Assembly: GCA_016927185.1 (NCBI GenBank) | Contig: JAFGND010000023.1 | Coordinates: forward strand, 1-64,000 | Direction: 5' to 3' | Length of the DNA stretch: 64,000 nucleotides | Origin: Candidatus Coatesbacteria bacterium | Lineage (GTDB): Bacteria; JAFGND01 | Shown here: positions 3,782-57,638 of the stretch, piece by piece | Position numbering within the stretch: position 1 is the stretch's first letter | Layout of the letters: each line of letters begins with the position of its first letter | Position numbers and translations under genes: made by a program | The notes under the pieces: generated by a model | The model's input: the letters and a program-made list of their open reading frames with translations, nothing else | The model's database searches: none | What the model was told of the DNA's origin: nothing

Positions 3782-5770
3782 TTACAAAATTATCTTCCCG
3801 TCATAATCATTTGGAACTGGGATATTGAAAATGTTCAATACTGTTGGTGCAATATCAATGAGAGAAGGATTGGCATCAATAAGCTTCCTGTTGCTAAGGA
3901 ATACTCCTGGAACCCTGTTGTAATCTATACAGTGATCACCAGACCATTTACCTTTGTTAGGTCTTATAATCCATTCAGTTATTTTACCCAGAGCGCTTTG
4001 CCATGCAATTCTGTAATCCCTCTCAAATCCGAGAATTATATCCGGAGATTCATTCATGAATTCACCTTTGAAAATCTCAGTGGCTTTATAAATATTTGCA
4101 AAAACATTTTTGTTAGTTGCAGGATCCTTCAATGCAAGCAATTTTTCCTTGATTTCTTCTAATAATCCTTTTTCCTCATTAGGCGTCACTATTCCCTGTG
4201 CTTCCCTGTTCCTTTTATTAAGATAAAGTCCATTCAAGCCATATGCATATGCTCTTGTCTGTGGCCAGTCAACATCAATAAAAGCTTCATTATCACTTGA
4301 CTTCAAGCCATCGCTGAAATAAAGGTATTTGTTTTCATGAAGCCAGGAGTTGACATTTACTGAATACTTGAAAGAAGCAAAACCATGATCGCTGCAAATG
4401 ATTATTATATCATCTTTATCAAGTTCTGACAGAATTTTTCCAAGCATAACATCAAATGATAAATAAAGATCCCTGATAGCATTTTTTATTTCAAGACATT
4501 CCTTGATATTATAAGCAGGATGATGTTCATCAAGTGCTCTCCATAATACATGAGTATTCTGGTCTAAACTGGAGAAATAGAAGAATAGCAAACCATCCTT
4601 GAAAGACTTGAATTCATGCTCGAAATGAGTAATACTCTCATCAAGTATATAGAGAGCTTGTTGCAGATATTCCCTGTCAGTAAGTGCTCCTGAAGTCAAT
4701 GATTTAGTATTTTCTGGCATTCCCTGCGTGTAAAACAATCCCATATCTTTAGAAAGATTTGCAGCATATCCAGAAGGTGCATCTATCGGAAGAGCCGGAT
4801 CATTGGGGTTTATATTCACTGGTGTAACATAAAGTTGGAAATCCGGATATAATGATTTCAGATAGAATCTGACAATCCCTGATATTTTCTTCATAGAACC
4901 TGCAAAAGGAAAATCTATCTCAATCCATCTTGACCATTCCTTTTCCTTTAGAAGAATCTCTTCTTTTCCAAAACGAAGCAACAATAACGACTTTTCTTTA
5001 TCCAGAAATGCCGTTCCATTTGAATATGTTGTTATTTTCTTATTCTTGAATGGATTTTCAGGTCCAGGTATTGATAAATTTACTTTGTTATTTGTTACTG
5101 CTACAGGTATTATCTGACCGCCTCCAGCTTCTTCATCCTGTATGAATTCAACATTTGTGAAAAGTGTGAACAAGCCATAAGTCCCTTGTAAATCCGGAGT
5201 ACCCATACCGCTTATGCTTTTGCCAAATCTTGTTTCTTTTGGAGGAAAGTTAGAAGGGATTTTATAAATAGTATGAGCAATTTTATGTGCATCAAGATAA
5301 TCCCAGAAAACATCACTCCTGTTCAGATTTTCGACCTTGCCTGCTGACAAGGGGATTTTCCATGAGGATAAATTCAGATTAATATCTCCACTTATACTTT
5401 TCGAAGTACTCAGGAAAGGTGTATAGAAATTGGGATCTCGGTGTATGAAATCGAAAATTCCATGTTTGGCAGGATTCTTCCCTGAAGCAAATGAAGCCCA
5501 TGCAACAGGAGATTGGGGAGGCATTACAGTACGCAGAGGGGAAAATGAACCTGTTTTTGATAACGTATAAAAATTTTTCATTAATCCTTCATTGAACATT
5601 TTTTTAAGAAAACCTGGATCCATACCATCTATTCCAAGTATTAAAATCCTTCTTCCTGTTCTTATGCTTCTGCTTTGAAGCCTGCAACCAATCATTCCAG
5701 TAGAAAGCAGACCACAAGCAGATAGCTTCAAAAAATCTCTTCTATTAATCTCGAATCTTTTTCTTGTCAT
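3782..5770 (-). CDS. TAT-secreted alkaline-phosphatase-superfamily enzyme (type I phosphodiesterase/nucleotide pyrophosphatase-like) with C-terminal extension
   Basis: 662 aa; twin-arginine motif RRDFLKLSACGLL; GIDGMDPGF metal site, Ser/Thr nucleophile region PPQSPVAWASF...HGIFDF, SDHGF motif; paralogous to ORFs at 38212-39480 and 40083-41492. Confidence 0.75.
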   Translation of the reverse strand: MTRKRFEINRRDFLKLSACGLLSTGMIGCRLQSRSIRTGRRILILGIDGMDPGFLKKMFNEGLMKNFYTLSKTGSFSPLRTVMPPQSPVAWASFASGKNPAKHGIFDFIHRDPNFYTPFLSTSKSISGDINLNLSSWKIPLSAGKVENLNRSDVFWDYLDAHKIAHTIYKIPSNFPPKETRFGKSISGMGTPDLQGTYGLFTLFTNVEFIQDEEAGGGQIIPVAVTNNKVNLSIPGPENPFKNKKITTYSNGTAFLDKEKSLLLLRFGKEEILLKEKEWSRWIEIDFPFAGSMKKISGIVRFYLKSLYPDFQLYVTPVNINPNDPALPIDAPSGYAANLSKDMGLFYTQGMPENTKSLTSGALTDREYLQQALYILDESITHFEHEFKSFKDGLLFFYFSSLDQNTHVLWRALDEHHPAYNIKECLEIKNAIRDLYLSFDVMLGKILSELDKDDIIIICSDHGFASFKYSVNVNSWLHENKYLYFSDGLKSSDNEAFIDVDWPQTRAYAYGLNGLYLNKRNREAQGIVTPNEEKGLLEEIKEKLLALKDPATNKNVFANIYKATEIFKGEFMNESPDIILGFERDYRIAWQSALGKITEWIIRPNKGKWSGDHCIDYNRVPGVFLSNRKLIDANPSLIDIAPTVLNIFNIPVPNDYDGKIIL

Positions 5771-8617: not shown

Positions 8618-10224
8618 TGCAAACCCGTTATATTTTTGTTTTGGGAGGAGTTGTAAGCTCTCTTGGCAAGGGAATTGCTTCAGCTTCTATTGCAATGTTG
8701 CTTTCCAGAATGGGTTTGAGTGTAACTTTGCAGAAATTTGATCCTTATATTAATATCGATCCTGGAACTATGAATCCTTATCAACATGGAGAGGTTTTTG
8801 TAACTTCAGATGGAGGTGAAACTGATCTGGATCTTGGTTACTATGAAAGATTTACAGGCATTAATATGACCAAGAACAACAACACTACAGCAGGACAGGT
8901 TTATAACACTATTATTGAAAAAGAGCGAAAAGGTGAATTTCTTGGAGATACCATTCAGGTCATACCTCATATAACAGATGAAATAAAGCGAAAAGTCAAG
9001 TTTGTAGGTACTGGTTTCGATGTCGTTGTTACTGAGATTGGTGGAACAGTAGGAGATATTGAAAGTCTGCCTTTTCTGGAAGCAATAAGACAATTAGCAC
9101 TAGATTTAGGTCGCGAAAATGTTTTATATATACTTGTAACACTTGTCCCTTATATAGAAAGTGCAGGAGAGATTAAAACTAAACCAACTCAACATAGTGT
9201 TCACAGGATAAGGGAGATAGGTATTCAACCTGATATAATAATCTGCAGATCAGAAAAGCATATTTCAGATGAAATAAAGGACAAGATAAGTCTTTTTTGT
9301 AATGTGCAGAAAGATTGCGTTATTGAAGCTCCTAATGTAGAGAATATCTATGAAGTTCCGATTATTTTTGCAGAGCAAAAATTACATTATATAATTACAG
9401 GTAAAATGAGTATTGATCCAAACAGTGATCTTGAAATAAGTGACTGGAATACTTTGGTCAAGCATGCTAATGAAATAAACTCAGTAGTAAAAATTGCTAT
9501 TGCTGGCAAATATACCAAGCTAAAAGATGCCTATAAATCTGTTCTCGCAGCAATAACCCACGCTTCATGGGCTAATGACGTAAAACCAGAAATAATCTGG
9601 ACAGAGTCAGATAGTCTGGTTGAAAATCCTGATCTTCTTGATGAAGCAGATGCTGTTCTTGTCCCCGGAGGATTCGGATTGAGGGGAATGGAAGGCAAAG
9701 TAGCAGCTGCCAAGTATGCTCGCGAAAACAAGATTCCTTATCTTGGATTGTGTCTTGGGCTTCATGCAGCTACTATTTCTTTTTCAAGGGATATATGCAA
9801 ACTCGAAGGTGCTCAAAGTACTGAATTTGACAAGAAGACTCCTCATCCTGTTATTGACTTGCTTCCTCAGCAAAAGGATCTGAAGAAGATGGGAGGGACA
9901 ATGAGATTAGGGCATTATGCATGCCTTCTCTTTTCAGGAACAAAATCACTTGATCTATACGGCACTAATATAGTTTATGAAAGGCACAGACATAGATTTG
10001 AGGTAAACAGCAAATATATAGATATATTGAAAAAAAATGGACTTGTTGTTGCTGGTATAAATCCTGATACAAAACTTGTCGAGATCATAGAAATACATGA
10101 TCATCCATTTTATATAGCTACGCAGTTTCATCCAGAATTCCAGAGTAATCCTCTAAAACCACATCCATTATTCAAAGGATTTATTAGAGCAGCAAAAGAA
10201 AGATCTAATGAAAGAAAAAGATAA
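8617..10224 (+). CDS. pyrG: CTP synthase
   Basis: 535 aa; N-terminal synthetase domain ([15 protein letters not shown]) and C-terminal glutamine amidotransferase ([13 protein letters not shown]). Confidence 0.95.
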
Positions 10225-19817: not shown

Positions 19818-21515
19818 ATGGATGTTTGTTTTATATATAATGGATCAGAAAAGAAACTTGAATGTGCAGAATATGCCTGGTCAAATATTGCAAACAGGGC
19901 AGGATTGAACTATCATATGAAACCTTTTTCAGGTACATTTCTTTCTTTTTGTTATGGAAATAAACCAGAAAATATTAGTAATAGCTATTTATGGATGCCA
20001 TCTTGCAGCAACTGCTTTGAAAATGAGACTAAACTTGAATTAGCTGGGAATTTGACTTCCTCTTTTGCTAATGAAGAGATTCCCATTTTTTCTGAAATTC
20101 ATGAAGTTACTGGAGAAATAATTGGAAGTATAAAAACAAAAACTGAATCAAATATAGTACCTGTATTGAGCAGGAAATCTTATAATGGTTTGGAATGCAT
20201 ATTTGCAGGATTTGATTTATTGAATGCTGTATTCTCCTTGCTTACTTTCAAAAACGAAGAAACAAGCAATAATGATGTTTTGAAAAGGCATGATACAATG
20301 AAGCATATCTTAATAAAATCAAATATGAAAGAGATGCCTGTAATAGATATTTATGCAGAATTGATGAAGAAGCTTTTCTGGAATTTAGCTAAATCAAGAA
20401 GTTCAGTTTTTCTTATAAAAGGAATGTATCCAGGAAATCAGAAAGGAGCACTTATTATAACTCATGATGTTGATAGAATGGGTTATATATACAAACAGCC
20501 TTCTTATTTACAGCTAAAAAGAATAACAAAAGCACTATTGAAAAAGGAAGTATTCAGCTTCAATGAATTGATTTCATCTATAAGAAATCCCTTGAAAGAT
20601 CCATATTGGAAAATTGATGAAATACTTGGATGGGAAAAAGAAAAAGGGATTAAAGCTGATTATTTCTTTCTGGCAAATCCATCAGATCCATTTTGCTACA
20701 GGTATGATATAAGAAAACCTGAATTAGGCAACAAGATAAATGAAGTAATTTCAAGAAATCATTCTGTTGGATTACATAGTTCTATTGAAGCTTTCAGCAG
20801 TCTTGAGCAATTGATAATGGAAAAAGAAATGCTTGAAAGAATATGTAACAAGAAAATCTCTAAAGTGAGGCAGCATTATCTATTGTTTGATTATGGAAAA
20901 AGCCCAGAGAGATTTAAAGAAGCAGGTTTGAACATAGATGCAGGAATATCTTTTCATGATGAAACAGGTTTCAGGGCGGGAACAAGTTACCCATTTAAAT
21001 ATTTCAACCATAATCAAATAACAGCATTTCCATTATCCTTGATGGATGGAGCTCTTCTTTTCAAGAAAGACATTGATCATTGGGATGATTTTATTAGATT
21101 ATTCAATTCAATATACAAGATGAATGGAATACATCACTGGTTGATACATCCAAGAACATGGTTTGAAGATGAGTTTAAGGGTTGGAAGGAATTTTTTAAA
21201 AAGGCATTCGAGTTTGCATATTCAAAACAGCTGTGGCAAGTAACACTAGATGAACTTGTAAATTGGCTGGAGAACAGAAATCTTGTCAGAATGAGTCATT
21301 TATCAACAAAACCTGATAGGTGGTTTATTTTAAATACTTGCAATGAGAAGATTCAAATGACTTTCAACGTTCTTTCTCAAAATGAATTTACAATAGAATT
21401 ATACAGAAATCAGGAAAGCAAACCATTCACAAGGGAGAGGAATTTTCAGTTGGAACTGAATGCAGGTGAAGAAATTATCATAGTAGCTAAGATTGGGAAG
21501 TCCTTAAATGCTTGA
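19818..21515 (+). CDS. Hypothetical protein (possible carbohydrate deacetylase/hydrolase-like fold)
   Basis: 565 aa ORF; ITHDVDRMGY and HSS/HYLLFDYG motifs loosely reminiscent of polysaccharide deacetylase-like enzymes; no confident family. Confidence 0.55.
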   Translation: MDVCFIYNGSEKKLECAEYAWSNIANRAGLNYHMKPFSGTFLSFCYGNKPENISNSYLWMPSCSNCFENETKLELAGNLTSSFANEEIPIFSEIHEVTGEIIGSIKTKTESNIVPVLSRKSYNGLECIFAGFDLLNAVFSLLTFKNEETSNNDVLKRHDTMKHILIKSNMKEMPVIDIYAELMKKLFWNLAKSRSSVFLIKGMYPGNQKGALIITHDVDRMGYIYKQPSYLQLKRITKALLKKEVFSFNELISSIRNPLKDPYWKIDEILGWEKEKGIKADYFFLANPSDPFCYRYDIRKPELGNKINEVISRNHSVGLHSSIEAFSSLEQLIMEKEMLERICNKKISKVRQHYLLFDYGKSPERFKEAGLNIDAGISFHDETGFRAGTSYPFKYFNHNQITAFPLSLMDGALLFKKDIDHWDDFIRLFNSIYKMNGIHHWLIHPRTWFEDEFKGWKEFFKKAFEFAYSKQLWQVTLDELVNWLENRNLVRMSHLSTKPDRWFILNTCNEKIQMTFNVLSQNEFTIELYRNQESKPFTRERNFQLELNAGEEIIIVAKIGKSLNA

Positions 21516-22077
21516 TAACTTCTTGTGCAACAAATTTGAAAGTCTCGAAAACATTTACGCCATCTGAGGCAACTGACAGAAAATATGGGACAGAATACCA
21601 GTTAAGCTCTTTTTGTAAAATCTCAATATTCATTGCTCCTAGAAGATCCCTTTTATTATATTGTATAACGAAAGGAACAGATGTAGGCAGCATATTATAT
21701 TCCTTGAGGTTAGCTTCAAGATCCAACATAGAACCAATATTGGCATCCAGTCTGTCTATTTGACTATCTGCAACAAAAACTATACCATCCACATTTCTCA
21801 GTATCAGTCTTCTGCTTGCAGTGAAATAAGTTTGACCAGGAACAGTATACAAATGAAATCTTACATTATAACCATTTATTGTAGCAAGATTGAGAGGCAG
21901 GAAATCAAAAAATAAAGTTCTTTCGTGATCTGTTGCAAAGCTTATTAGTTTACCACCAATCTTTTCTCTGGTTATTTCATGGATTCTTGCTACATTAGTA
22001 GTCTTGCCTCCAAGACCAGGTCCATAATAAACAATCTTCGTATTAATCTCTTTAGAACTATAATTTATTACAGCCAT
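21487..22077 (-). CDS. MglA-like Ras-superfamily small GTPase
   Basis: 196 aa; KIVYYGPGLGGKTTN P-loop, DFLP..., YTVPGQ (switch II with Thr/Gly), NKRD G4 motif exactly as in MglA/Arf-like prokaryotic GTPases. Confidence 0.7.
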   Translation of the reverse strand: MAVINYSSKEINTKIVYYGPGLGGKTTNVARIHEITREKIGGKLISFATDHERTLFFDFLPLNLATINGYNVRFHLYTVPGQTYFTASRRLILRNVDGIVFVADSQIDRLDANIGSMLDLEANLKEYNMLPTSVPFVIQYNKRDLLGAMNIEILQKELNWYSVPYFLSVASDGVNVFETFKFVAQEVIKHLRTSQS

Positions 22078-38211: not shown

Positions 38212-39480
38212 TTAATAATCAAGAAGAAAATTCAGTATATATTCACCGACATTCTGAATAGATATGCATTCTGGCATTAATTGATTTGTTATACGGAATG
38301 CATTGTCATATGTATGGCAGCCAGTTATATGAGTACTATTAAAAACTTCCTTAGTATTAAGCCTTGCTTTTAAATCGTAACCATGCTTCGGAAGAATTAC
38401 CATGTCTGGTGCAATATCCAGAAACTCGCCTTTATATATATCTTCTTTCCTGAATACTTTTTCTATTACTGCTTCATTATTATATTTCAATGTAAAGAGT
38501 TTGCTCTCAAGATCATCAAGGTATTTTTTACAGTCTTCTTCGGAAATTTCAAGACCATTTTCAAATATCTCTCTTTTATTCAAATATATCCTTCCTGGAT
38601 CCAGAGACATGAATAATGATTTTCCGCTAATATCTTCTATGCTTGCAGGATGGCTTTTATTCAGTACCATTAAGTTATTCTCGATAAGCCAGTTATTTAT
38701 ATATATTTCCTGCTTTAATCCAGTGAAACCATGATCTGAAAGCATAATGAACGGATTTTCATCAAAAAAATCATCAACCAATCTTCCAAACAGTTTGTCT
38801 ATCTTGTTGAAATATTCCATAACAAATGAGTGATATATATTACTTTTATCTGTAATTGCATGATGCATGAAATGCAGAAGCCTATCAGTTTCAGTAATAA
38901 CTCCTATCCATAAATCGTACTTGTCTTTCAAAGTCAACCTGAAACTTTTTTCCCTTATTTCGAGCATCTCAATTAAATCTTTTACAAGGAAATCCAAATC
39001 TTTTGCTTTAGTCAAATCAACATCTATTCTATATTTCATGTCCTTTAAATCCCTGTAGAAGGAAAGCGGATATACTGATTTTTCCAGTTCTAATGCCACA
39101 AAACCCGAAACCATAAGTCCATTTATCGGGGTAGCAGGATATGTACTTGGTAAATTAATGACTGCTGAAGTCATATTCTTCTCAGCTATTATTTCCCATA
39201 AAGTTTTCTTTTTCCTGTCTTTACTGTTGGGAAAAGTCAAGCTATATGATGGTCTGTTAAAATCCATGAATCCAAATATGCCATGCTCAGCAGGATTTGA
39301 AGCAGTCATGAAAGATGTCCATGCAACTGACGAAATAGGCGGGTAAGAGCTCAGAAGAGGGACAAAGCTGGATTCAGATTGATCTATATAACTTTTGAAA
39401 TTTGGCATTATCCCGGCATCAATATATTCGCTTATCAGACTGAATGGAGTCCCGTCTAATCCCAGTACATAAAAAGCCAT
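38212..39480 (-). CDS. Cytoplasmic alkaline-phosphatase-superfamily enzyme (type I phosphodiesterase/nucleotide pyrophosphatase-like)
   Basis: 422 aa; no signal peptide; LGLDGT, PPISSVAWTSF...HGIFGF, LSDHGF motifs; stop overlaps cysC start. Confidence 0.75.
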   Translation of the reverse strand: MAFYVLGLDGTPFSLISEYIDAGIMPNFKSYIDQSESSFVPLLSSYPPISSVAWTSFMTASNPAEHGIFGFMDFNRPSYSLTFPNSKDRKKKTLWEIIAEKNMTSAVINLPSTYPATPINGLMVSGFVALELEKSVYPLSFYRDLKDMKYRIDVDLTKAKDLDFLVKDLIEMLEIREKSFRLTLKDKYDLWIGVITETDRLLHFMHHAITDKSNIYHSFVMEYFNKIDKLFGRLVDDFFDENPFIMLSDHGFTGLKQEIYINNWLIENNLMVLNKSHPASIEDISGKSLFMSLDPGRIYLNKREIFENGLEISEEDCKKYLDDLESKLFTLKYNNEAVIEKVFRKEDIYKGEFLDIAPDMVILPKHGYDLKARLNTKEVFNSTHITGCHTYDNAFRITNQLMPECISIQNVGEYILNFLLDY

Positions 39481-40079
39481 TAAATATATCCCAGATCTTC
39501 AAGTCTTTTCTTGATTTTTGCTTCTTCATCAGGGGAATAAACATTCTTTATGAAAGTGCGATTTGTTATGAAACCTTTTTCTTGAAGATAATTCAGTATT
39601 GTTTCCACGCTTTCCTCTATAGATGTATTTTTTAACTCAATTTCAGGATTTAATGGTGGTTCATAAGGATCATCCACTCCAGTGAAGTCTTTTATTTCAC
39701 CTTTTCTTGCTTTTGCATACATTCCCTTTACATCCCTTTGTTCACATATTTCAATTGGGGTATTCATATATACCTCTATGAAATTCGTACAGGATTGTCT
39801 GGCATCAAAACGCGCTTTCCTGTAAGGTGAAATAAAAGAGACAATAACAGCAACTTCATTTCTGGATAAAAGCTTTGCTACAAAAGTAACTCTATCGATA
39901 TTTTTATCCCTGTCTTCTTTTGAAAATCCAAGATCCTTGCATAAGGATTTTCTGACAACATCCCCATCAAGTCTCTCCACCTTCAATCCTAGATCTGTCA
40001 ACTCCTTTGCTAAAGCATCTGCTATAGTTGTTTTTCCAGAACATGGTAAACCGGTAAACCAAATACAAAATCCATTCAT
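39480..40079 (-). CDS. cysC: Adenylylsulfate (APS) kinase
   Basis: 199 aa; FWFTGLPCSGKTT P-loop, LDGDVVR, classic CysC. Confidence 0.9.
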   Translation of the reverse strand: MNGFCIWFTGLPCSGKTTIADALAKELTDLGLKVERLDGDVVRKSLCKDLGFSKEDRDKNIDRVTFVAKLLSRNEVAVIVSFISPYRKARFDARQSCTNFIEVYMNTPIEICEQRDVKGMYAKARKGEIKDFTGVDDPYEPPLNPEIELKNTSIEESVETILNYLQEKGFITNRTFIKNVYSPDEEAKIKKRLEDLGYI

Positions 40080-40082
40080 TTA

Positions 40083-41492
40083 TCACTCCTCGTAAAAACT
40101 ACTTTTCCAAAATGATGTTCCCAAATAGTGATTTGGTTTTTTTATCCCGAAAGCCTCAAGGACAGTTGGGGCAATATGATAAATTGCTTGATGATCCAGC
40201 CAGTTTTCTCCGATTCCAGGATGATACAAGAGGAAAAATCCATCTTGGGCATGATTAGCATCATCAGGCCCCGTATCATTTTCATGAGTGTATAGTCTGG
40301 AGGTCCCAACAGTACCTTGACTTCGCCATGAAAGATCACCTAAGTATAGAATAATATCAGGTGGAATTCCATTAGTTTCATGATATATCTCATCAGGTAA
40401 ATATGCCTTGTTGTTCATGCAGATTCCGTTGTCATCAAGAATTGCTTCAAGTTTCTTTTTCAGTTCTTCAAGGAAATCCTTTTTCTGGTTTTCTTTTATT
40501 ATCCCTCTGGGTTCTCTGCCAGCAATGTTTAAAAAAATCCTTGAATAGTATCCTCCCTCTCCATAACAATATGTATTATCCCAGTCAATAATATCGTGAC
40601 TAATTTTTAGTGCTTTCTTTGGGGTTTCTATCAGTTTCAAATAACCTTCTTGCATTAGCCATTCATTGATATAGAAACCGCCTTTCATTGCTTTTGCTCC
40701 ATGATCAGATACTATGAAAATTGCGATTTCTTCATTATCTATATAAGGATTCAAAAGCTCCTCAAGGTTTTTGTCAAGAGAAATGTAGTACTTTTCTACT
40801 ACATTTTTCAGGATGCTATCAGGCTTATATAATGGATGCTCTTCATCGAAATATTTCCAGAAACCATGATGTAGTCTGTCAGGTCCCATAAAAACTGCCA
40901 TGAAGAAATCCCATTCTTTGCTTTCAAGAAGAAATTTTGCTGCCTTGAAGCGAGCTTTTGTCATTTTGTAAATCTCTTTTATCAACCATTCCTTATCTTG
41001 TGTTCGGAAATTATTGACATCTATCTGATAATCAGGTACTGCTAGTAGAAGTTCCTTTTTAAGCTCTTTTGGATAAGTAAAATCTGAATTGAGGTCTGGA
41101 GTAAGAAAACACCCTACAAGATTGCCCTTTATTGGTTTAGGTGGATATGTTTGAGGAACATTTAGTATTGTAGATTTCAATCCAGCTTCTCCCAAAATAT
41201 CCCACAATAAAGGCTTCTTAATAAACGTGCTGTTAGCAATCACTTGATCATTATAGTCATAACTTCCTCTGTTTCTGAAGCCATAAATACCTAGCTGACC
41301 TGGATCCTGAGAAGTCATCATAGTCATCCATGCTGGTACAGTGATCGCTGGAATGGTACTCCTGAGTGTTCCATAACGAGAACTCTGTTTGAGTTTGTTG
41401 AAGAAATCAAGTTGATTAACGAATCTGCTATTCACAAGCTGAGGCGCAAGACAATCAAGTCCTATAATAATGAATTTTTTAATCTGTGGCAT
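40083..41492 (-). CDS. Cytoplasmic alkaline-phosphatase-superfamily enzyme (type I phosphodiesterase/nucleotide pyrophosphatase-like), paralog
   Basis: 469 aa; IIGLDCLAP, ITVPAWMTMMTS...GIYGF, VSDHGA motifs. Confidence 0.75.
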   Translation of the reverse strand: MPQIKKFIIIGLDCLAPQLVNSRFVNQLDFFNKLKQSSRYGTLRSTIPAITVPAWMTMMTSQDPGQLGIYGFRNRGSYDYNDQVIANSTFIKKPLLWDILGEAGLKSTILNVPQTYPPKPIKGNLVGCFLTPDLNSDFTYPKELKKELLLAVPDYQIDVNNFRTQDKEWLIKEIYKMTKARFKAAKFLLESKEWDFFMAVFMGPDRLHHGFWKYFDEEHPLYKPDSILKNVVEKYYISLDKNLEELLNPYIDNEEIAIFIVSDHGAKAMKGGFYINEWLMQEGYLKLIETPKKALKISHDIIDWDNTYCYGEGGYYSRIFLNIAGREPRGIIKENQKKDFLEELKKKLEAILDDNGICMNNKAYLPDEIYHETNGIPPDIILYLGDLSWRSQGTVGTSRLYTHENDTGPDDANHAQDGFFLLYHPGIGENWLDHQAIYHIAPTVLEAFGIKKPNHYLGTSFWKSSFYEE

Positions 41493-41499
41493 TACATTC

Positions 41500-42657
41500 C
41501 TATTCTACAAATGGTTTTGGATAATTGATCATAATATCACTTATTTCTTTTCTTGTCATTTCCTCAGGAATAGATATGTGTTTTATAATCATCTCCCTTA
41601 CTAATGAACCGGAAAGATAAATTCTTTCTGAATCTCCATGAGGACATGTTTTTGAAGTTGCCATCTGATCACAAGTACTGCAAAAGAAAGAATTCTCGAA
41701 ACAAAGTGGTTTTATTTCAAGTTTATTGAAAGGCATTTTTTCAAAAATTTTTTGTGCGTCGTAAGTCCCATAATATTTTCCAACACCTGCATGATCACGT
41801 CCTACAATAAAGTGGGTACAACCGAAATTTTGACGAATAATTGCATGAAAGATTGCTTCTTTAGGACCTGCGTAGTTCATCTTCATAGGCAAAATGCTCA
41901 TAACAGCTCTGTTTTTAGGATAAAAATCTGAGATCATCTTTTCATAAACTGCTATTATTACTTCGTCTTTAAAGTCACCAGACTTCTTTTTCCCAATGAC
42001 AGGATTAATGAAAAGTCCATCAACAACTTCTAATGCACATTTCTGAAGATATTCATGAGAACGATGAACTGGATTTCTGGTCTGAAAAGCAACAACTGTC
42101 TGCCAGCCTTTTTCCCTGAAAAGAATCCTTGTTTCAAGGGGATCCAGATTATATTCAGGAAATGGTTGCCTGTTTGTATCTATAAGATCAATTCTTCCAG
42201 CAACATAATATTCCTTTTTTGAGAGAAAACCCGCAACTCCTGGATGTTTTTCATCATTAGTCTGAAATACGCTTGAAACAAGCTTGTTTACATCAGGTTT
42301 ATATATTTCTTCAACTAGCATGGAAGCTAAAGGTGAATTATCCTCATTTTTTATAAGAACATGCCTGCCTTCTTTCAATTTTATAGCCGTTTCATGATCA
42401 ATATCCAATACAATTGGAACTGTCCATATAAGTCCGTTTTCAAGAATGCTGTCATCTATTATTGCTGAAAGATCAATTTTGGACAGAAAGCCATTCAAGG
42501 GACTGTAGATACCCCTGCAGATATTTCTTATATCCTTGGAAGTCTCTTCATCAACAATAATTGATATCCAGTTGCAGCAGTTTTCAAGAACATTCTCTCT
42601 TTCTTCACCCTGAAGAATTCTTCTGATCAGTTGTCCTCCATGTGGTTTTATTTGCAT
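41500..42657 (-). CDS. sat: Sulfate adenylyltransferase (ATP sulfurylase)
   Basis: 385 aa; QTRNPVHRSHE and GRDHAGVG motifs of ATP sulfurylase. Confidence 0.9.
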   Translation of the reverse strand: MQIKPHGGQLIRRILQGEERENVLENCCNWISIIVDEETSKDIRNICRGIYSPLNGFLSKIDLSAIIDDSILENGLIWTVPIVLDIDHETAIKLKEGRHVLIKNEDNSPLASMLVEEIYKPDVNKLVSSVFQTNDEKHPGVAGFLSKKEYYVAGRIDLIDTNRQPFPEYNLDPLETRILFREKGWQTVVAFQTRNPVHRSHEYLQKCALEVVDGLFINPVIGKKKSGDFKDEVIIAVYEKMISDFYPKNRAVMSILPMKMNYAGPKEAIFHAIIRQNFGCTHFIVGRDHAGVGKYYGTYDAQKIFEKMPFNKLEIKPLCFENSFFCSTCDQMATSKTCPHGDSERIYLSGSLVREMIIKHISIPEEMTRKEISDIMINYPKPFVE

Positions 42658-50226: not shown

Positions 50227-50646
50227 ATGATTAATTGGGATGTAATACCTAAAGAATCTCAAGAGGAAACTGTTGATAGATGCTATTATAGCCTGATAGA
50301 TTCTTCAAGAATCTATAGAAACAGAATACTTGAATTGAAACAAGAATTTCTTCAAAAAATGTTGGTTACAATCCAGGATCATGGTTTATGGCAATGGCTA
50401 ATTGGAGAAGAGAGATGTACTGAATTATGCAAGAGCTTTGACGGAAAAATTGTCTTTTCCTTGAAACTGGAAGAAGCAGGTTTCATAATAAGCATTGAAG
50501 CAAAAAGTGAAACTGATACTATATACTATGAAATATCCAAATCTGGAATAGTAGATAGAGGATTAATACCTTATATAGATGAAATCTCACAAGGCTTGCT
50601 TGAAGTATATATGAAGGCAAAAAAAGAAAGAACCAGAAACCTATAA
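50227..50646 (+). CDS. Hypothetical protein convergent with E2-like gene
   Basis: 139 aa ORF with good SD (AAGGAGA) upstream; no recognisable domain. Confidence 0.45.
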   Translation: MINWDVIPKESQEETVDRCYYSLIDSSRIYRNRILELKQEFLQKMLVTIQDHGLWQWLIGEERCTELCKSFDGKIVFSLKLEEAGFIISIEAKSETDTIYYEISKSGIVDRGLIPYIDEISQGLLEVYMKAKKERTRNL

Positions 50647-51297
50647 AAAAGTGACTTTAGGTTTTATTTTTTCTGTAATATCTGGAATACCTGTCGGCAA
50701 TACCTTGTAAAAACTGATCCATCTTGTCAACATATATTCAAAGACTTTTTGAGGATTCAAATCCTGATACCATTTCATGATTTCAATATTCAATCCCCAA
50801 TCTGAATCTTTGTACAAACTTGGTGGTTTTACCAAATCAGGTTTCAGAAGCACATTGAAAATAATGTCTCCTATTATCCTGTCTATCTCTCCATTTACAA
50901 TATAGCAAACCGGCATTTCCCTGTTAGAAGAACACCTGGGATGGAGTAATGGAGTTTTACAATAGATTTTTACTTTATCAAGTCTATATGGATAATATCT
51001 TGGTATCTTGAATACAAAAATATGATTGAAGCCAATTATTGCTTTGCCATTCCTTTTATTCACAATTCCAGGAATTCTATTTAAAACGATTTCAAATCCT
51101 TTATATGTTTTATCTTTTCTTTTTCCAATTGATCTTATTGTAATGTCCTCTTGAATCCAGCTGTCTTCGATCCTTTTATGTTTTGAAATCGAGATTTCGT
51201 AAGATAAAGCAAATCCAGAAAATTCCTTATAGAAATTTTCTATTCCTATTTCTATTCTCCTGTTGAATATCAAAGGTGGAAGGTTCAGGTCTTGCAT
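50641..51297 (-). CDS. Ubiquitin-conjugating (E2/UBC-fold)-like enzyme
   Basis: 218 aa; FKIPRYYPYRLDKVKIYCKTPLLHPRCSSNREMPVCYIVNG aligns to UBC core (F.P..YPF.PPKV.F.T.I.HPN....G.ICL); HP + Cys active-site arrangement. Confidence 0.7.
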   Translation of the reverse strand: MQDLNLPPLIFNRRIEIGIENFYKEFSGFALSYEISISKHKRIEDSWIQEDITIRSIGKRKDKTYKGFEIVLNRIPGIVNKRNGKAIIGFNHIFVFKIPRYYPYRLDKVKIYCKTPLLHPRCSSNREMPVCYIVNGEIDRIIGDIIFNVLLKPDLVKPPSLYKDSDWGLNIEIMKWYQDLNPQKVFEYMLTRWISFYKVLPTGIPDITEKIKPKVTFL

Positions 51298-51605
51298 GTT
51301 CCTACTGTTGGTCTTACATCGAATTTGAAAACCTCGCCATTTTCCAGATCTGGTGTTAACTCACCTAATGTTAATCCAGGACTAATTTCTGAGTGTCCGG
51401 TACCTTTTCTTATTAAAATGAAGTTATGCTGCGAACCCACTTTTTTTTGAGCCCACTTATCTAAATTCAGATCAGGTTCTTTTTCGCATCTTGCAACAAT
51501 AGCTTCAAGAATTTCCTCAATTGTAGTTGTTAAATCTACTCCTATTCTAAAGCTCTTATTCTTCGGTTCAACCTCTACCTCAATTGTCCTCCAAAAGGTA
51601 CTCAT
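51285..51605 (-). CDS. Beta-grasp ubiquitin-like protein with C-terminal extension after Gly
   Basis: 106 aa from ATG with perfect SD (AAGGAGG); TIEVEVEP...TIEEILEAIVARC...LTLGELTPDLENGEVFKFDVRPTVG pattern mirrors ubiquitin strand1/helix/strand5; ends ...TVG-TCKT. ORF-track TTG start (MKKKRRKR) rejected. Confidence 0.6.
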   Translation of the reverse strand: MSTFWRTIEVEVEPKNKSFRIGVDLTTTIEEILEAIVARCEKEPDLNLDKWAQKKVGSQHNFILIRKGTGHSEISPGLTLGELTPDLENGEVFKFDVRPTVGTCKT

Positions 51606-51709
51606 CCTCTTCCTCCTTTTTTTCTTCAAGGCTGTTCATGTGAATTTCACAAATAAAGTAAGGTAACCAGTTTGGTGGTTTTTCATTTTTATATGGGAAA
51701 GAAATTTCA

Positions 51710-52507
51710 TCAATGATCTTTATTTTTGACATCTAAATCCTCTATACAAAAAGGTTCAACGCAATTGGGATTTTTTATTATATCTGTTTTAAACAACAGT
51801 CTTTTTTCCAGATTAAAATGCAAGTGAAAATTTCTCTTCTCATTTTCCTCAAAACTGTTTAGCCATTCTGTAACCATCAAACTTGCAGCAATGCTGTTCA
51901 ATGTAATTATAATAGGGAAGGACGGAGAAACGCTTTTAATTAAATCATTGCATTTCGATTTTACTTTCTCAGCAAGAATTTCGTTTTTATATTTTTCTGT
52001 AAAAGAACAACTCATGCATGAATTCTTAAGATTCTTGTAGACTCTTATATCTACTATATTTTTCCCCATTGCTCCATCTATTATAATGGGATGACTCTTC
52101 ATGGAAAGCAAAATTATATTGATCATATACCTAGAGTAATCATTATCAATGCACAAAAAAATACAATCAGAATTCCAATACTTCTTGTTAATGTTTTCTG
52201 CATAAGAAACCAGAGAATCAATTTTTGTTTTCCAAGCTTGCTCTCCGATTACCTTTTTTATGATTTGTGTTTTGAAAGTTCCTTTTCTTATTCCTGGATT
52301 GAAGAATATGCATCTGTTTCTGTTATGTTCTTCTATTTTGTCAAAATCAACTATTGTTATTCCTTTTATTCCTAGTAAAATAAGATTTTTGATAACTTCA
52401 TTTCCAATAGATCCAGCACCAATTACAAGTATCTTTTTTTCGATAATCTCCTTATATCGCTTTTTTCCAATATATTGAGCGTTTTTACTATGTTGAATAT
52501 AAGACAT
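51710..52507 (-). CDS. E1-like ubiquitin-activating enzyme (ThiF/MoeB/HesA family)
   Basis: 265 aa; ILVIGAGSIGNEV nucleotide-binding loop and VDFDKIEEHNRNR adenylation motif; Cys-rich SCMSCS segment. Confidence 0.8.
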   Translation of the reverse strand: MSYIQHSKNAQYIGKKRYKEIIEKKILVIGAGSIGNEVIKNLILLGIKGITIVDFDKIEEHNRNRCIFFNPGIRKGTFKTQIIKKVIGEQAWKTKIDSLVSYAENINKKYWNSDCIFLCIDNDYSRYMINIILLSMKSHPIIIDGAMGKNIVDIRVYKNLKNSCMSCSFTEKYKNEILAEKVKSKCNDLIKSVSPSFPIIITLNSIAASLMVTEWLNSFEENEKRNFHLHFNLEKRLLFKTDIIKNPNCVEPFCIEDLDVKNKDH

Positions 52508-52994
52508 ATTTAATTGGTGCTAGGAATAAACCTCCATCTATAGCTCCTCTTATCTGGAATACTTTGAAGTATTTTGATATTGGATCTGCTATTATGAAGA
52601 CATTACCAGGAGTTCCATATGGAAACAGCAAAAATGTTGATAGATCTTTTAAGGAAAAAAACGGTTCTGTTCCAAAAGGATGAGAATGAAAAAGTCCAAT
52701 TTCTCTCGGTGGATTTATACTGTCAGGATAACGTTCTGATAACATCAGAGAACAATCTCTTAGCCCCTTGTTTGTAAATGAAGCACTTGATCTTGTTTTT
52801 TCGAATTCACCGGTAACCCAATCAGTAATTTTTATATAAATAGCTCCTTCAAATAGACATCTATAGCCGATAAGTTTTGCCAATGCCTCGTTAGGTAATT
52901 CCTCTTCAGAGAATCTCATCAAGTCCCTTGCAATTCTTTTCAGAATATAAACTGAATATATAACTTTTTTCTGCATAATCAATATAGTCAGCAA
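52488..52994 (-). CDS. JAB/MPN (JAMM) metallopeptidase
   Basis: 168 aa; JAMM motif HSHPFGTEPFFSLKD (HxHx7-8SxxD) with upstream Glu. Confidence 0.75.
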   Translation of the reverse strand: MLTILIMQKKVIYSVYILKRIARDLMRFSEEELPNEALAKLIGYRCLFEGAIYIKITDWVTGEFEKTRSSASFTNKGLRDCSLMLSERYPDSINPPREIGLFHSHPFGTEPFFSLKDLSTFLLFPYGTPGNVFIIADPISKYFKVFQIRGAIDGGLFLAPIKYVLYST

Positions 52995-53078
52995 AGATCC
53001 AAATCCACAAAATAAAGCAAGAAGTTTATTTTTGATAAAATGCTTGCATGAATAATATAAAATATTCGCTTTGCCAAC

Positions 53079-53378
53079 ATGATAATTGTAAAAATAATGG
53101 GTCCAGTGGTTTCTACATTGAAAACAGATTCTCTGAAGGGTTTTAAGCTTCTTCTAGTTCAAAGACTTGATATTGAATTGAAAGGTGAAAAACAAGCTCT
53201 CGTAGCTGTTGACTTGGTTGATGCCGGGCCTGGGGATATTGCTTTATTTGTTAGCGGTAGCAGTGCAAGGCAGACTACCGAAACACAAAACAAGCCAGTT
53301 GATGGTTTATTAGTTGGCATTGTGGAGCAAATAGAGAAAGAACATAAAGTGATCTATAAAAGAGGAGAAAATGAATAA
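53079..53378 (+). CDS. EutN/CcmL/PduN-family bacterial microcompartment vertex protein (orphan)
   Basis: 99 aa; MIIVKIMGPVVSTLKTDSLKGFKLLLV...VAVDLVDAGPGDIALFVSGSSAR...PVDGLLVGIV is near-textbook EutN/CcmL signature; no shell hexamer genes nearby. Confidence 0.8.
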   Translation: MIIVKIMGPVVSTLKTDSLKGFKLLLVQRLDIELKGEKQALVAVDLVDAGPGDIALFVSGSSARQTTETQNKPVDGLLVGIVEQIEKEHKVIYKRGENE

Positions 53379-54375
53379 AAATGATCCTAAGGACATATTA
53401 GGACTTTTTTTTACTATCTCCCAGCAACTTGAATATGCAACGAGTGAGAAGTTTTTTTATGATATAAACCCAGATGAATTTGATTCAATATTGTTCGTGG
53501 GAATGGGTGGCTCAGGAGTTGCAGCGAGAATCATAGCTGAGCTTTTTAACAATAAGTTTAAAACTCCATGGTCTTTCAGTAATGATTATCTTGTCCCTGA
53601 ATGGATAAGTGAAAAAAGCTTAGTTGTTTCAATAAGCCAATCTGGAAATACCGAAGAAGTATATTTTTCAACTGAAGATGCATATAGAAAGAATGCAAAG
53701 ATAATAATTATTACAAGCGGAGGTAATCTTGAGATTCTTGCCAGAAAACTTAATTGCCCAATCATAAAAATTCCACCGGTAATTGCCCCGAGAGGAGCTT
53801 TCGGAAATCTATTTGGTACTTTACTTAATTTTTTAAAACAAATGAAAGTGATTGATGTTGAAACCAAGGAAATAGAAGAGACAATAGCTTTGCTTGAGGA
53901 ATTGAAAAGTGAGTGGACTAAGGATGATAGCTTGCCATGGAGAATAGCAAGATATCTTGAAAAATCTTATCCAATGATATATGGTGAAGAGAATTATATG
54001 AACAGCATTTGTTTCAGATGGGTAACACAATTAAATGAAAATGCCGGGATTCTAGCTCATTTCGCAATGCAGCCGGAGATGTCACATAATGAAATAGTAG
54101 GATGGAGAGACAAGAGTATGCCTGCAAAGATATTGTTTCTTTGCGGTAATCAGGTTCATCCGAGAATAGCATTAAGAAGAGAGATAATGAAGAAAATAAT
54201 TCCCTTCGAATATAAAATGATTTTTCCACCATCAGGATTATTGAAATGGCAGGAAGCCTTTTATTTTCTGCATTTAGGAGATATAGTAAGTGTATATCTT
54301 GCTTATATTAATAATAAAGATCCTTTTGATATAAATGAGATTAGTTGTTTGAAAATGGAAATGGGAAAGAAATAG
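53371..54375 (+). CDS. Bifunctional phosphoglucose/phosphomannose isomerase (SIS domain)
   Basis: 334 aa; FVGMGGSG...SQSGNTEE SIS motifs, size typical of archaeal-type PGI/PMI. Confidence 0.75.
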   Translation: MNKNDPKDILGLFFTISQQLEYATSEKFFYDINPDEFDSILFVGMGGSGVAARIIAELFNNKFKTPWSFSNDYLVPEWISEKSLVVSISQSGNTEEVYFSTEDAYRKNAKIIIITSGGNLEILARKLNCPIIKIPPVIAPRGAFGNLFGTLLNFLKQMKVIDVETKEIEETIALLEELKSEWTKDDSLPWRIARYLEKSYPMIYGEENYMNSICFRWVTQLNENAGILAHFAMQPEMSHNEIVGWRDKSMPAKILFLCGNQVHPRIALRREIMKKIIPFEYKMIFPPSGLLKWQEAFYFLHLGDIVSVYLAYINNKDPFDINEISCLKMEMGKK

Positions 54376-55532: not shown

Positions 55533-56465
55533 GTGGAGCTGGTATTCTGGGGCACCAGCGAGTTTTGTATTCCAACATTAAAAGCTTTATTTGAAGATAG
55601 TTTTTTCAGAATTAAAGCGATAATTACTCATCCAGATACTATTTGTAATAGGGGATACAAATCTCACTCTTGTCCTGTCAAGAAATTTGGTATAGACCAC
55701 AACATAAGAATACTTGAACCAAGTAAGCCATCAAGCAAGCTTTTCATAGAACAGAATATTGAACATCTAGCTGTAGATGCATATGTTGTAATTAGCTATG
55801 GTTATATTTTGAAAAAAAGGCTTCTAGATATACCCAAGCTTGGAGCTATTAATCTTCATCCTTCACTTTTACCAAAATATAGAGGACCAGCTCCAATTTC
55901 ATGGGCTTTGATTAATGGTGAAAAGAAAACAGGACTGACCACTTTCATACTCAATGATAAGGTTGATTCTGGTGAGATTTTGTTGCAAAAGGAAGTAGAT
56001 ATTTTTCAAGATGAAACTTATGGGGAACTTGAAGCAAGATTATCATTTTTAGGAAGCAAATATGTTGTAGAATCGCTAAAAAGGCTTATCGATGGTAGTA
56101 TTACACCCCAAAAGCAGGATGATTCATTAGTCAGCTTTGCCCCTAAGATAGACAAGCAAATGGTTAAGATAGACTGGAATAAAACAAGCAATAACATTTT
56201 TAATTTCATAAGAGGACTATCTCCCAAATATAAACCATTCACATATATGGAAGATAAAAGAATAAATATTTATAAAGTACTTAAAACAGATTTAGATATA
56301 AGTCTCTTCCCTGGGGAATGCAGGGTAATTGCCAGACAATTATATATAGGAACTTCGGATAAGCCTCTTGAAATTATGACTTTACAGATTGAATCCAAAA
56401 AGATTCTACCTTCAAGTGAATTCCTAAAAGGATATCCCAATATATCAGGGAAAGTACTCAGATAA
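55533..56465 (+). CDS. fmt: Methionyl-tRNA formyltransferase
   Basis: 310 aa; GTSEF, HPSLLPKYRG, formyl-transferase core; GTG start. Confidence 0.9.
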   Translation: MELVFWGTSEFCIPTLKALFEDSFFRIKAIITHPDTICNRGYKSHSCPVKKFGIDHNIRILEPSKPSSKLFIEQNIEHLAVDAYVVISYGYILKKRLLDIPKLGAINLHPSLLPKYRGPAPISWALINGEKKTGLTTFILNDKVDSGEILLQKEVDIFQDETYGELEARLSFLGSKYVVESLKRLIDGSITPQKQDDSLVSFAPKIDKQMVKIDWNKTSNNIFNFIRGLSPKYKPFTYMEDKRINIYKVLKTDLDISLFPGECRVIARQLYIGTSDKPLEIMTLQIESKKILPSSEFLKGYPNISGKVLR

Positions 56466-57638
56466 ATGATACAAATATTTGAAATTATTGGAATAATAAG
56501 CATGTTTACCTTGTTTTACATTTACTTAGGGTACCCAGTTATTTTATACATGCTAAGCCTTTTCAAGAAAAAAGAGGATATCAATGAAATAAACATAACT
56601 CAATCAGGGATAAGTATAATAATCCCAGTTCATAATGAAGAGGAAATTATTGAGAAGAAGATAGAAGATACAATAAATGTCTCTAATGATATAACCGAAA
56701 GGGAGATTATTATAGTTGATGATGCATCAAATGATAACACTTCAAAAATCTGTAAGAATTACTCAGAACAATATCCGTTTATCAAATTAAAAACCTTTGA
56801 TTGCAGAGGAGGCAAGACAAGAAGTATTAATTATGGTACTGCCATTTCCACTCATGAATTCATACTTTATACTGATGCTAATATATTCCTCAAGGGAAGT
56901 GATCTGCTAAAAACGCTTTCCTTATTTACTGATGAAAAAGTTGGTTGCATATGTGGAGAGAAAAGACCTATACAGATGGTTATATCGGGAACAGGAAAAG
57001 GAGTTGGTTTTTATGCAAGATGGGAGTGGTTTGTTAAATCACTGGAAAGCAAGATAGATAGTGTTGTAGGAGCTGATGGTGGTTTATTCATGATAAGAAA
57101 AAGACTATTCACAGCACTTCCTGAAGATGTTATAGACGATTTTACTACAAGTCTCAATATCAGAATAAAGGGATATAAAATAATTCTGTCTACATATCTC
57201 CTCGGAATGGAGCCTGCTACAACAAATTACAAGGAGGAATTCATTTCTAAAGTAAGAGTTATTTCAAGAGCCTGGAAAGGTTTTTTATATTCATATAGAG
57301 TGTTATATTTCTGGAAATATCCTGTTTTTACCTGGGAATTCATTTCTCATAAAATATTAAGATGGTTGAGTCCTTTTTTCATGTTATGTTTATTGTTAAT
57401 AGTACCAGTCTCTTTTAATAATATATACTTTATGCCTTTTTCATTATTATATATTATTTTTTTAATTCTATCTTTTCTTGGTTATTTATCTGAAAAAAAC
57501 AAAAGAAGAAATAGATTTCTTTCAGTTCCATTTTATTTTTGTTTAGTTAATTTTGCTGCGATAAACGGGTTAGCAAGATTCTTGATGGGAAAAAGCAATG
57601 TAATCTGGCAGAAAAGTCAGTCTTCAAGGAAGTTTTAA
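56466..57638 (+). CDS. Family 2 glycosyltransferase, membrane-integrated
   Basis: 390 aa; ISIIIPVHNEE...IIIVDDASNDNT GT-A motifs, C-terminal TM helices. Confidence 0.75.
   Translation: MIQIFEIIGIISMFTLFYIYLGYPVILYMLSLFKKKEDINEINITQSGISIIIPVHNEEEIIEKKIEDTINVSNDITEREIIIVDDASNDNTSKICKNYSEQYPFIKLKTFDCRGGKTRSINYGTAISTHEFILYTDANIFLKGSDLLKTLSLFTDEKVGCICGEKRPIQMVISGTGKGVGFYARWEWFVKSLESKIDSVVGADGGLFMIRKRLFTALPEDVIDDFTTSLNIRIKGYKIILSTYLLGMEPATTNYKEEFISKVRVISRAWKGFLYSYRVLYFWKYPVFTWEFISHKILRWLSPFFMLCLLLIVPVSFNNIYFMPFSLLYIIFLILSFLGYLSEKNKRRNRFLSVPFYFCLVNFAAINGLARFLMGKSNVIWQKSQSSRKF

Follow-up and report, generated by a model that had tools for sequence, protein, structure and literature searches.

Here, we describe a gene for a pentameric vertex protein of bacterial microcompartments (BMC-P, EutN/CcmL family), located in a 64-kb stretch of DNA (GC content, 33.9%; hereafter, the window) that represents most of a 67,189-bp contig from a metagenome-assembled genome labelled Candidatus Coatesbacteria at NCBI. 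The gene stands without any other recognizable microcompartment gene in the window, and its 3' end overlaps the start of a gene for a bifunctional phosphoglucose/phosphomannose isomerase (PGI/PMI). Relatives that have diverged deeply from one another share this coupling, and the BMC-P itself is under strong purifying selection. As it stands, this is a divergent, satellite-type BMC-P in a context not described before. We lean, by a modest preference, towards the view that it is a satellite vertex gene that serves a shell encoded elsewhere in the genome, the presence of that shell being assumed.

Identity, fold and conserved residues of the BMC-P

The 99-aa product of the window gene, which is 100% identical to MBN1232216.1, matched the Pfam family EutN_CcmL (PF03319) with 88.9 bits (cut-off, 25; E = 3.2e-25) over profile positions 1–82 of 83. 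Among the NCBIfam models, scores amounted to 82.3 bits for CcmL (NF053795; equivalog cut-off, 125), 61.5 bits for EutN (NF011992; equivalog cut-off, 118), 42 bits for CsoS4 and 23 bits for carboxysome peptide B. Since all of these values fell far below the equivalog cut-offs, the protein is to be regarded as a member of the family and not as an ortholog of any named vertex protein. When PDB sequences were compared by phmmer, the best match was the BMC-P of the Haliangium ochraceum (HO) shell (5v74; 7.6e-16), followed by GrpN, EutN and several CcmL proteins, all in full-length alignments devoid of indels; the entries matched included 4i7a, 2hd3 and 2qw7.

An AlphaFold2 monomer model of the window protein was built on 52 homologs (pLDDT, 88.1). 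All 47 structures that it matched at E ≤ 1e-3 were BMC-P proteins, and the predicted fold is the β-barrel of this family. The top fold matches were CcmL of the beta-carboxysome and EutN of Escherichia coli (template modelling (TM) score, 0.85–0.88; root-mean-square deviation, 1.6–1.8 Å; sequence identity, 36–42%), which also corresponded to the best NCBIfam models; in contrast to these two, the window gene is not accompanied by carboxysome or ethanolamine genes. The best solved match by sequence, the HO BMC-P (5v74/6mzx), is colinear with the window protein over residues 1–93, with approximately 39–40% identity and a TM score of 0.83 to the predicted fold. However, the HO protein belongs to a triplet, and its place at shell vertices beside hexameric (BMC-H) and trimeric (BMC-T) shell proteins is proven, whereas such a place is a prediction for the window BMC-P. 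The family score, the PDB matches and the predicted fold bear out the original prediction, made from the DNA letters, of an unmistakable EutN/CcmL-type protein of 99 aa, and the peptide strings quoted in it are present. The window gene therefore most likely encodes a genuine, functional BMC-P, which would assemble into pentamers.

For residue conservation, the window protein was aligned with 119 further members of the family, namely E. coli EutN and 118 database homologs. It retains every invariant position (G8, D45, GSSARQ at 60–65, P73 and D75) as well as the near-invariant residues T13, K15, K23 and A49-G50. The GAGxGE/GCxPGD-type motif reads DAGPGD in the window and GAGPGD in a related contig (L001, see below), so that its terminal acidic residue is kept; an Asp occupies this acidic end in 34 of the 119 relatives. 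The PGD version of the motif is that of CsoS4A, in which the Asp forms a salt bridge to the hexamer (2026 review, PMC13370225). Clade-specific substitutions were found at three positions that are more than 85% conserved (V55A, I78L and D83E), and A76G, T9P and G/A4V also distinguish the window clade. These replacements are conservative and, as judged from the alignment, do not indicate a loss of the hexamer interface. The idea that the interface motifs had decayed, which arose from a 9-sequence alignment, was accordingly abandoned with the 121-sequence alignment, in which the changes appeared conservative and the acidic end was kept.

A series of searches for further microcompartment genes was performed on the 64-kb window. 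No match was obtained by tblastn with PduA, CcmK2, EutM and the HO BMC-H, nor with a small ad hoc hidden Markov model (HMM) of BMC-H run on the six-frame translation. Phmmer searches, with shell proteins and core enzymes from two related loci as queries, did not yield any BMC-H or BMC-T, AldDh, PTAC, RnfC/PduS-like protein, DeoC, class II aldolase or AckA. A Pfam pass over approximately 60 window open reading frames (ORFs) was equally devoid of microcompartment-associated families. It returned adenine deaminase, CTP synthase, YidC, urocanase, citrate lyase CitDEF, 2-oxoacid:ferredoxin oxidoreductase and RuvB, together with sulfate activation, radical SAM, LolA, Wzy, Fmt, glycosyltransferase family 2 (GT2), L19 and RNase HII; RuBisCO, CcmK/M/N and carbonic anhydrase families, which would have marked a carboxysome context, were not detected in this pass. 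As for an ethanolamine context, EutA, EutB and EutC were not found in the window. Likewise, neither PF01791 (DeoC-type aldolase) nor PF02502 (RpiB), the signature enzymes of an SPU-type locus, nor the AldDh and shell genes that go with them were found in the 64 kb. The original claim that nothing else in the window resembles a microcompartment locus was upheld by all four approaches. Its companion claim, that encapsulation peptides are lacking, holds for the two enzymes encoded directly downstream: the PGI/PMI (compared with NF006425) and a PepT-like peptidase (compared with its own family model) carry no terminal extension. A profile search of a genome-contig collection that contains neither this genome nor close relatives, with an alignment of the BMC-P pair and then with PGI/PMI, gave no match.

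Conserved coupling of BMC-P and PGI/PMI

The gene downstream of BMC-P was indeed confirmed as a PGI/PMI gene, as had been proposed, by a TIGR02128 score of 224.5 bits (cut-off, 213.9). The two genes share 8 nt at the BMC-P stop and the PGI/PMI start (ATGAATAA), and a strong Shine-Dalgarno sequence for PGI/PMI, AGAGGAG, lies inside the BMC-P 3' end. The genes that follow on the same strand, from the PepT-like gene onwards, are separated by gaps of 0–10 nt or overlap (Table 1). The sole plus-strand terminator-like site was located inside the PGI/PMI gene, with a count no higher than in shuffled sequences, and predicted promoter sites were no more numerous than in shuffles.

A search was made of 5.8 billion proteins clustered at 90% identity. 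Only two close clusters were retrieved, at 100% and 76% identity to the window BMC-P, and everything else was at most 54% identical. Cluster members and PGI-based look-ups together led to six independent contigs that fall into two sublineages. The first comprises the window, L009 (SRR21537128) and L092 (ERR14964774); the second comprises L001 (GCA_017973795.1), L091 (GCA_964396635.1) and L010 (JGI 3300010319), with only the last 19 BMC-P codons present in the latter. The contig prefix of L001, JAEMOL, appears in a publication about deep-subsurface metagenomes. The BMC-P gene overlaps the PGI/PMI start on all six contigs, by 8, 11 or 14 nt, and the overlap together with the Shine-Dalgarno sequence is also kept in L009, L092, L001 and L091. 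The PepT-like gene follows PGI/PMI in the window (and in L008, its Logan copy), L001 and L091; on the remaining contigs, the following gene is either truncated or has no assigned identity. Wherever the sequence extends far enough upstream, a JAB-domain gene, or an entire module of ubiquitin-like (Ubl), E1 and JAB genes, is found in divergent orientation, in L091 by position only. Between the sublineages, PGI/PMI proteins are merely 39–43% identical and dS is saturated, whereas BMC-P proteins are 75–81% identical; outside the clade, nothing exceeds 37% identity to the PGI/PMI of this lineage. The coupling of BMC-P to PGI/PMI is thus conserved across deeply diverged relatives.

The BMC-P reading frame is intact on five contigs. 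We also compared the ratio of nonsynonymous to synonymous substitution rates (dN/dS) between the window and L009, at a dS of about 0.95. With 0.014, BMC-P had the lowest value of the seven genes compared, followed by JAB (0.030), the Ubl candidate (0.034), the 139-aa ORF p139 (0.045), the 218-aa ORF p218 (0.094), PGI/PMI (0.096) and E1 (0.165). For L001 versus L091, the values were 0.036 for BMC-P and 0.155 for PGI/PMI. Therefore, BMC-P ratios were 4–7-fold below those of PGI/PMI; across sublineages, dN was 0.12–0.16 for BMC-P compared to 0.52–0.57 for PGI/PMI. Ratios of 0.014–0.036 imply that the BMC-P is functional, and constraint of this strength would be in keeping with numerous interaction partners. 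A decaying remnant of a microcompartment locus, or a chance ORF, is consequently ruled out as a candidate; we regard this explanation as extremely improbable, since the isolation of the gene from any such locus, which might have suggested it, is set against the intact frame, the low ratios at a dS near 0.95, the PF03319 score and the confident structure model.

The region between BMC-P and the JAB gene contains two blocks that were conserved in both sublineages in an upstream alignment of the window, L009 and L001: GCTTGCATG (53042–53050) and GCTTTGCCA (53068–53076; GCYTTGCCA across the sublineages). The intergenic sequence outside these blocks was unalignable between sublineages. Exact GCTTGCATG occurs only once in the window, which shows no window-wide repeated motif of this kind, and no Rfam family, riboswitch or small RNA reached its gathering score on either strand of the 64 kb, the intergenic region included. 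The second block ends 2 nt before the BMC-P ATG and hence leaves no room for a Shine-Dalgarno sequence; a motif of this type is missing before BMC-P, while it is present at 27 of 57 window genes. The blocks could represent a promoter, an operator or a near-leaderless start. Divergent transcription from the JAB gene was correctly predicted, while the 84-bp distance given for it presupposes the TTG at 52994 as the JAB start; the gap widens to 159 bp for the ATG at 52919, whose equivalent is the JAB start in gene calls on three related contigs.

Table 1. Features around the BMC-P gene (window coordinates, unless another contig is named).
Feature	Coordinates	Strand	Basis or remarks
Ubl-type module	50227–52994		
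Ubl-type module, L009	106–2798		
Ubl-type module, L092	141–1775		
JAB-domain gene, last of the Ubl/E1/JAB module	52488–52994	-	PF14464 Prok-JAB, 25.1 bits
Divergent intergenic region, JAB/BMC-P	52920–53078		Two conserved blocks
BMC-P gene (EutN/CcmL family), 99 aa	53079–53378	+	PF03319; ATG start; leading cistron of operon
Bifunctional PGI/PMI (SIS + bact-PGI_C)	53371–54375	+	TIGR02128, PF10432, PF01380
PepT-like M20 peptidase	54345/54381–55523	+	TIGR01883, 298 bits
Methionyl-tRNA formyltransferase (fmt)	55533–56465	+	Pfam Formyl_trans_N/C
GT2 glycosyltransferase	56466–57638	+	Pfam Glycos_transf_2
GTPase-like ORF, 434 aa	57641–58945	+	Putative Der/EngA, as read by eye

Related loci, ancestry and other genes of the window

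A metagenome scan provided 80 related BMC-P loci, which were annotated locally. The next-nearest BMC-P proteins (38–54% identity) are encoded in canonical loci, just upstream of AldDh or PduS-like genes. Nearly all of the longer loci among the 80 were SPU-like or PVM-like and contained BMC-H, with the matching BMC-P typically placed directly before AldDh or a PduS-like gene. For instance, the SPU-like locus L005 encodes a Sugar-bind protein, PTAC, BMC-P, AldDh, a PduS-like protein, BMC-T/H, a second BMC-P and DeoC, and the PVM-like locus L007 encodes a BMC-P triplet, PTAC, AldDh, aldolase II, AckA and BMC-H. The principal BMC-P of such loci (L005, L007, L012–L016) are the nearest sequences to the window protein, with which they have length, C-terminal tail and invariant residues in common; as in the window, the gene that comes directly after them on the same strand is one for an enzyme. 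In contrast, these loci hold BMC-H/T, AldDh, PTAC and either DeoC or aldolase II, and in many cases two more BMC-P paralogs, whereas the window has a single BMC-P amid PGI/PMI and housekeeping genes, with no other microcompartment gene in 64 kb.

In a neighbour-joining tree, the window clade formed a separate long branch within the group of principal vertex proteins. Since the PGI/PMI of the lineage is equally isolated, this branch reflects a deep, sparsely sampled lineage and not a special rate shift. Ancestry points, on the basis of sequence, to a sugar-phosphate (SPU-like) or a PVM-like aldehyde-processing metabolosome. The SPU affinity of the window BMC-P is purely phylogenetic, and the SPU enzymes could lie elsewhere in the genome.

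Several related loci were devoid of BMC-H on the sequence available. A solitary BMC-P (PF03319, 84.9 bits) is encoded at 9980–10273 of L060, a 17-kb marine-sediment contig, where it is flanked by genes for a glucose/sorbosone dehydrogenase (GSDH), a GAF-SpoIIE phosphatase and a metallo-beta-lactamase-fold protein, a context unrelated to that of the window; no BMC-H was found within 10 kb upstream and 6.5 kb downstream. Three consecutive BMC-P genes without BMC-H on the fetched flanks were present in L002 (10001–10985; also in L003 and L004, together a BMC-P triplet satellite) and in L011 (2240–3200), with flanks of approximately 10 kb upstream and 3.2 kb downstream in L002, and approximately 2 kb and 6 kb in L011. 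Both correspond to the triplet satellite pattern of Sutter 2021. In L028 (9995–11719) and L087 (1067–2843), BMC-P is immediately followed by EutA, the ethanolamine ammonia-lyase reactivase, with no BMC-H on the contig, and these two resemble the 'EUT module' satellites of SPU/HO-type microcompartments. The idea that orphan copies form one clade was not supported: the neighbour-joining tree placed L060 apart from the window clade, and the two Coatesbacteria BMC-P proteins catalogued in the tree labels of Sutter 2021 belong to different subclades.

The divergent Ubl-type module upstream of BMC-P consists of a 139-aa ORF on the plus strand and, on the minus strand, a 218-aa ORF, a candidate Ubl of 106/114 aa, a 50-aa ORF, a ThiF/E1 protein of 265 aa and the JAB protein of 143/168 aa; only E1 and JAB had Pfam matches. 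In L001, the JAB protein encoded upstream of BMC-P shares 62% identity with its window ortholog. PADLOC did not assign the module to any system and yielded only generic E1-domain matches (a weak BilD match, E = 8e-6).

Elsewhere in the window, a 196-aa small GTPase (21487–22077, minus strand) matched the Arf (E = 3e-8) and Ras families, which is eukaryote-like for a protein from a candidate-phylum bacterium. At 38212–42657 (minus strand), two 'Phosphodiest' genes of the alkaline-phosphatase superfamily are interspersed with those for ATP sulfurylase and APS kinase, with a third 'Phosphodiest' gene at 3782–5770 (minus strand); these genes may form a sulfation- or sulfonucleotide-related cluster.

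A proposed shell encoded elsewhere and the alternatives

The original prediction considered a vertex protein without a shell to be unexplained, and suggested a moonlighting or repurposed role. Its description of the locus stands, namely an unmistakable BMC-P, alone in 64 kb, divergent from JAB and followed by PGI/PMI. The premise that such a gene is unexplained does not, because loci with scattered shell genes have already been described, especially in candidate phyla. A satellite locus is a distal one that encodes shell proteins, either by themselves or together with enzymes (Sutter 2021, PMC8217296). In FRAG-type microcompartments, which are common among candidate phyla, the components are dispersed over as many as six places, identifiable enzymes are often missing and BMC-P genes usually form triplets (PMC8217296). 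The window gene corresponds to the distal 'shell gene plus enzyme' half of this satellite definition and shares with satellite and FRAG loci the distance of a shell gene from any main locus, the occurrence in a candidate phylum and the optional enzyme. It differs in its partner, as none of the catalogued satellites that we looked at pairs BMC-P with PGI/PMI. The BMC-P tree of the same study labels two Coatesbacteria proteins, A0A1W9S2B8 of Coatesbacteria 4484_99 (131 aa; 'fragmented (sat) (omitted)'; SPU4-like subclade) and A0A1F5EWD0 of RBG_13_66_14 (103 aa; 'incomplete (sat) (omitted)'; long-branch outlier) (PMC8217296); no definition of 'incomplete' or 'fragmented' was found in the text. 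These two fall into separate regions of the BMC-P tree. Beyond these labels in the supplement, no literature on lone BMC-P genes or on microcompartments of Coatesbacteria was found.

Based on these observations, we give a slight preference to a satellite vertex gene whose shell is encoded elsewhere, since scattered shell genes are well documented and the protein has retained its canonical features under strong constraint; the occurrence among its relatives of BMC-P genes that stand alone or as a bare triplet (L060, L002 and L011) also counts in its favour, as do the two Coatesbacteria proteins catalogued as '(sat)' and the position of the nearest relatives in loci that carry BMC-H. In such a scheme, hexameric and trimeric shell proteins and the cargo would be encoded elsewhere in a poorly sampled genome, and BMC-P would be transcribed first in a housekeeping-type operon (BMC-P, pgi/pmi, pepT-like, fmt, GT2 and the GTPase-like ORF). 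The protein is probably made at a low level, since its gene has no Shine-Dalgarno sequence while PGI/PMI has a strong one, and a constitutive low-level output could provide the few dozen copies that suffice to cap the 12 vertices of a shell. The shell served would plausibly be SPU- or PVM-like, and the coupling to a hexose-phosphate isomerase may reflect a metabolic link with the compartment.

A number of findings weigh against this proposal. The existence of a shell elsewhere is an assumption and not an observation: genes for BMC-H, BMC-T, signature enzymes and any further shell proteins are missing from the 53 kb upstream and 10.6 kb downstream, and the five other contigs of the lineage (at most 8.2 kb) are equally devoid of shell and signature genes. 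The gene is a single copy, unlike the triplets typical of FRAG-type loci, and PGI/PMI, JAB or PepT-like genes adjoin BMC-P in none of the 80 related loci. Its setting is an uncommon one for a satellite: it is translationally coupled to PGI/PMI as the lead cistron of a housekeeping operon, and this arrangement has been kept down to a PGI/PMI identity of about 40%. The clade-specific substitutions at conserved sites, A76G and T9P among them, point in the same direction.

Vertex proteins of this family are thought to exist solely for closing the vertices of microcompartment shells. Nevertheless, the same findings would suit a lineage in which BMC-H and BMC-T were lost or never present, and in which the BMC-P was repurposed, for instance to scaffold or regulate PGI/PMI, or for another housekeeping role. 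We rate this alternative as less likely than a shell encoded elsewhere, and keep it alive because of the deeply conserved PGI/PMI coupling and the single-copy state. It can draw on the solitary gene, on an arrangement shared by six contigs of two deeply diverged sublineages, on selection that is stronger than on the neighbouring genes and so attests to some maintained function, and on the separate long branch with its substitutions, D83E included; weaker support comes from the catalogued Coatesbacteria BMC-P proteins, which are all labelled '(sat)' without a main locus, with no Coatesbacteria among the BMC-H/T tree entries listed. By contrast, invariant residues and an interface-type acidic motif would be expected of a working vertex protein, and both are retained. 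Moreover, PGI/PMI and the PepT-like protein bear no extension or other sign of binding to a shell protein, the PGI/PMI of the clade is as divergent as the long BMC-P branch, and the view of the genome is limited to approximately 64 kb. We know of no function of a BMC-P outside a shell, and no report of one was found in the literature. Conserved coupling and constraint do not decide between the satellite reading and repurposing. Taken to its full extent, it seems rather doubtful that this deep-branching, AT-rich lineage labelled Coatesbacteria lacks hexameric shell proteins altogether and that its BMC-P is the first vertex protein with a shell-independent function, possibly together with PGI/PMI or the Ubl/JAB module.

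A functional tie of BMC-P to the Ubl/E1/JAB module in particular, as its target, adaptor or co-regulated partner through a shared divergent promoter region, appears improbable. In both sublineages, the gene that lies divergently upstream is JAB, which like the Ubl candidate is strongly constrained, the intergenic region holds the two conserved blocks, and the module, as it is not recognized as a defence system, may be a housekeeping one. However, the argument is one of adjacency in a single lineage, where synteny could be simply inherited, and none of the 80 related loci has a JAB, Ubl, E2-like or other Ubl-module gene beside BMC-P, with one generic E1-like match approximately 3 kb upstream in L049. 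To our knowledge, modification of shell proteins by Ubl proteins is without precedent. Judged by its position, JAB appears as a conserved neighbour of BMC-P.

If the shell genes are located elsewhere in the genome, the finding would be a modest one, consisting of a divergent BMC-P clade and a new satellite context in which a vertex gene is hard-wired into a constitutive operon and coupled to the gene for a hexose-phosphate isomerase, and it would suggest that a little-known lineage carries an SPU- or PVM-like metabolosome. If, on the other hand, strong selection maintains a BMC-P in a lineage without BMC-H, then a second function must exist for this fold, and this would open a view of shell proteins arising from, or returning to, cytosolic roles.

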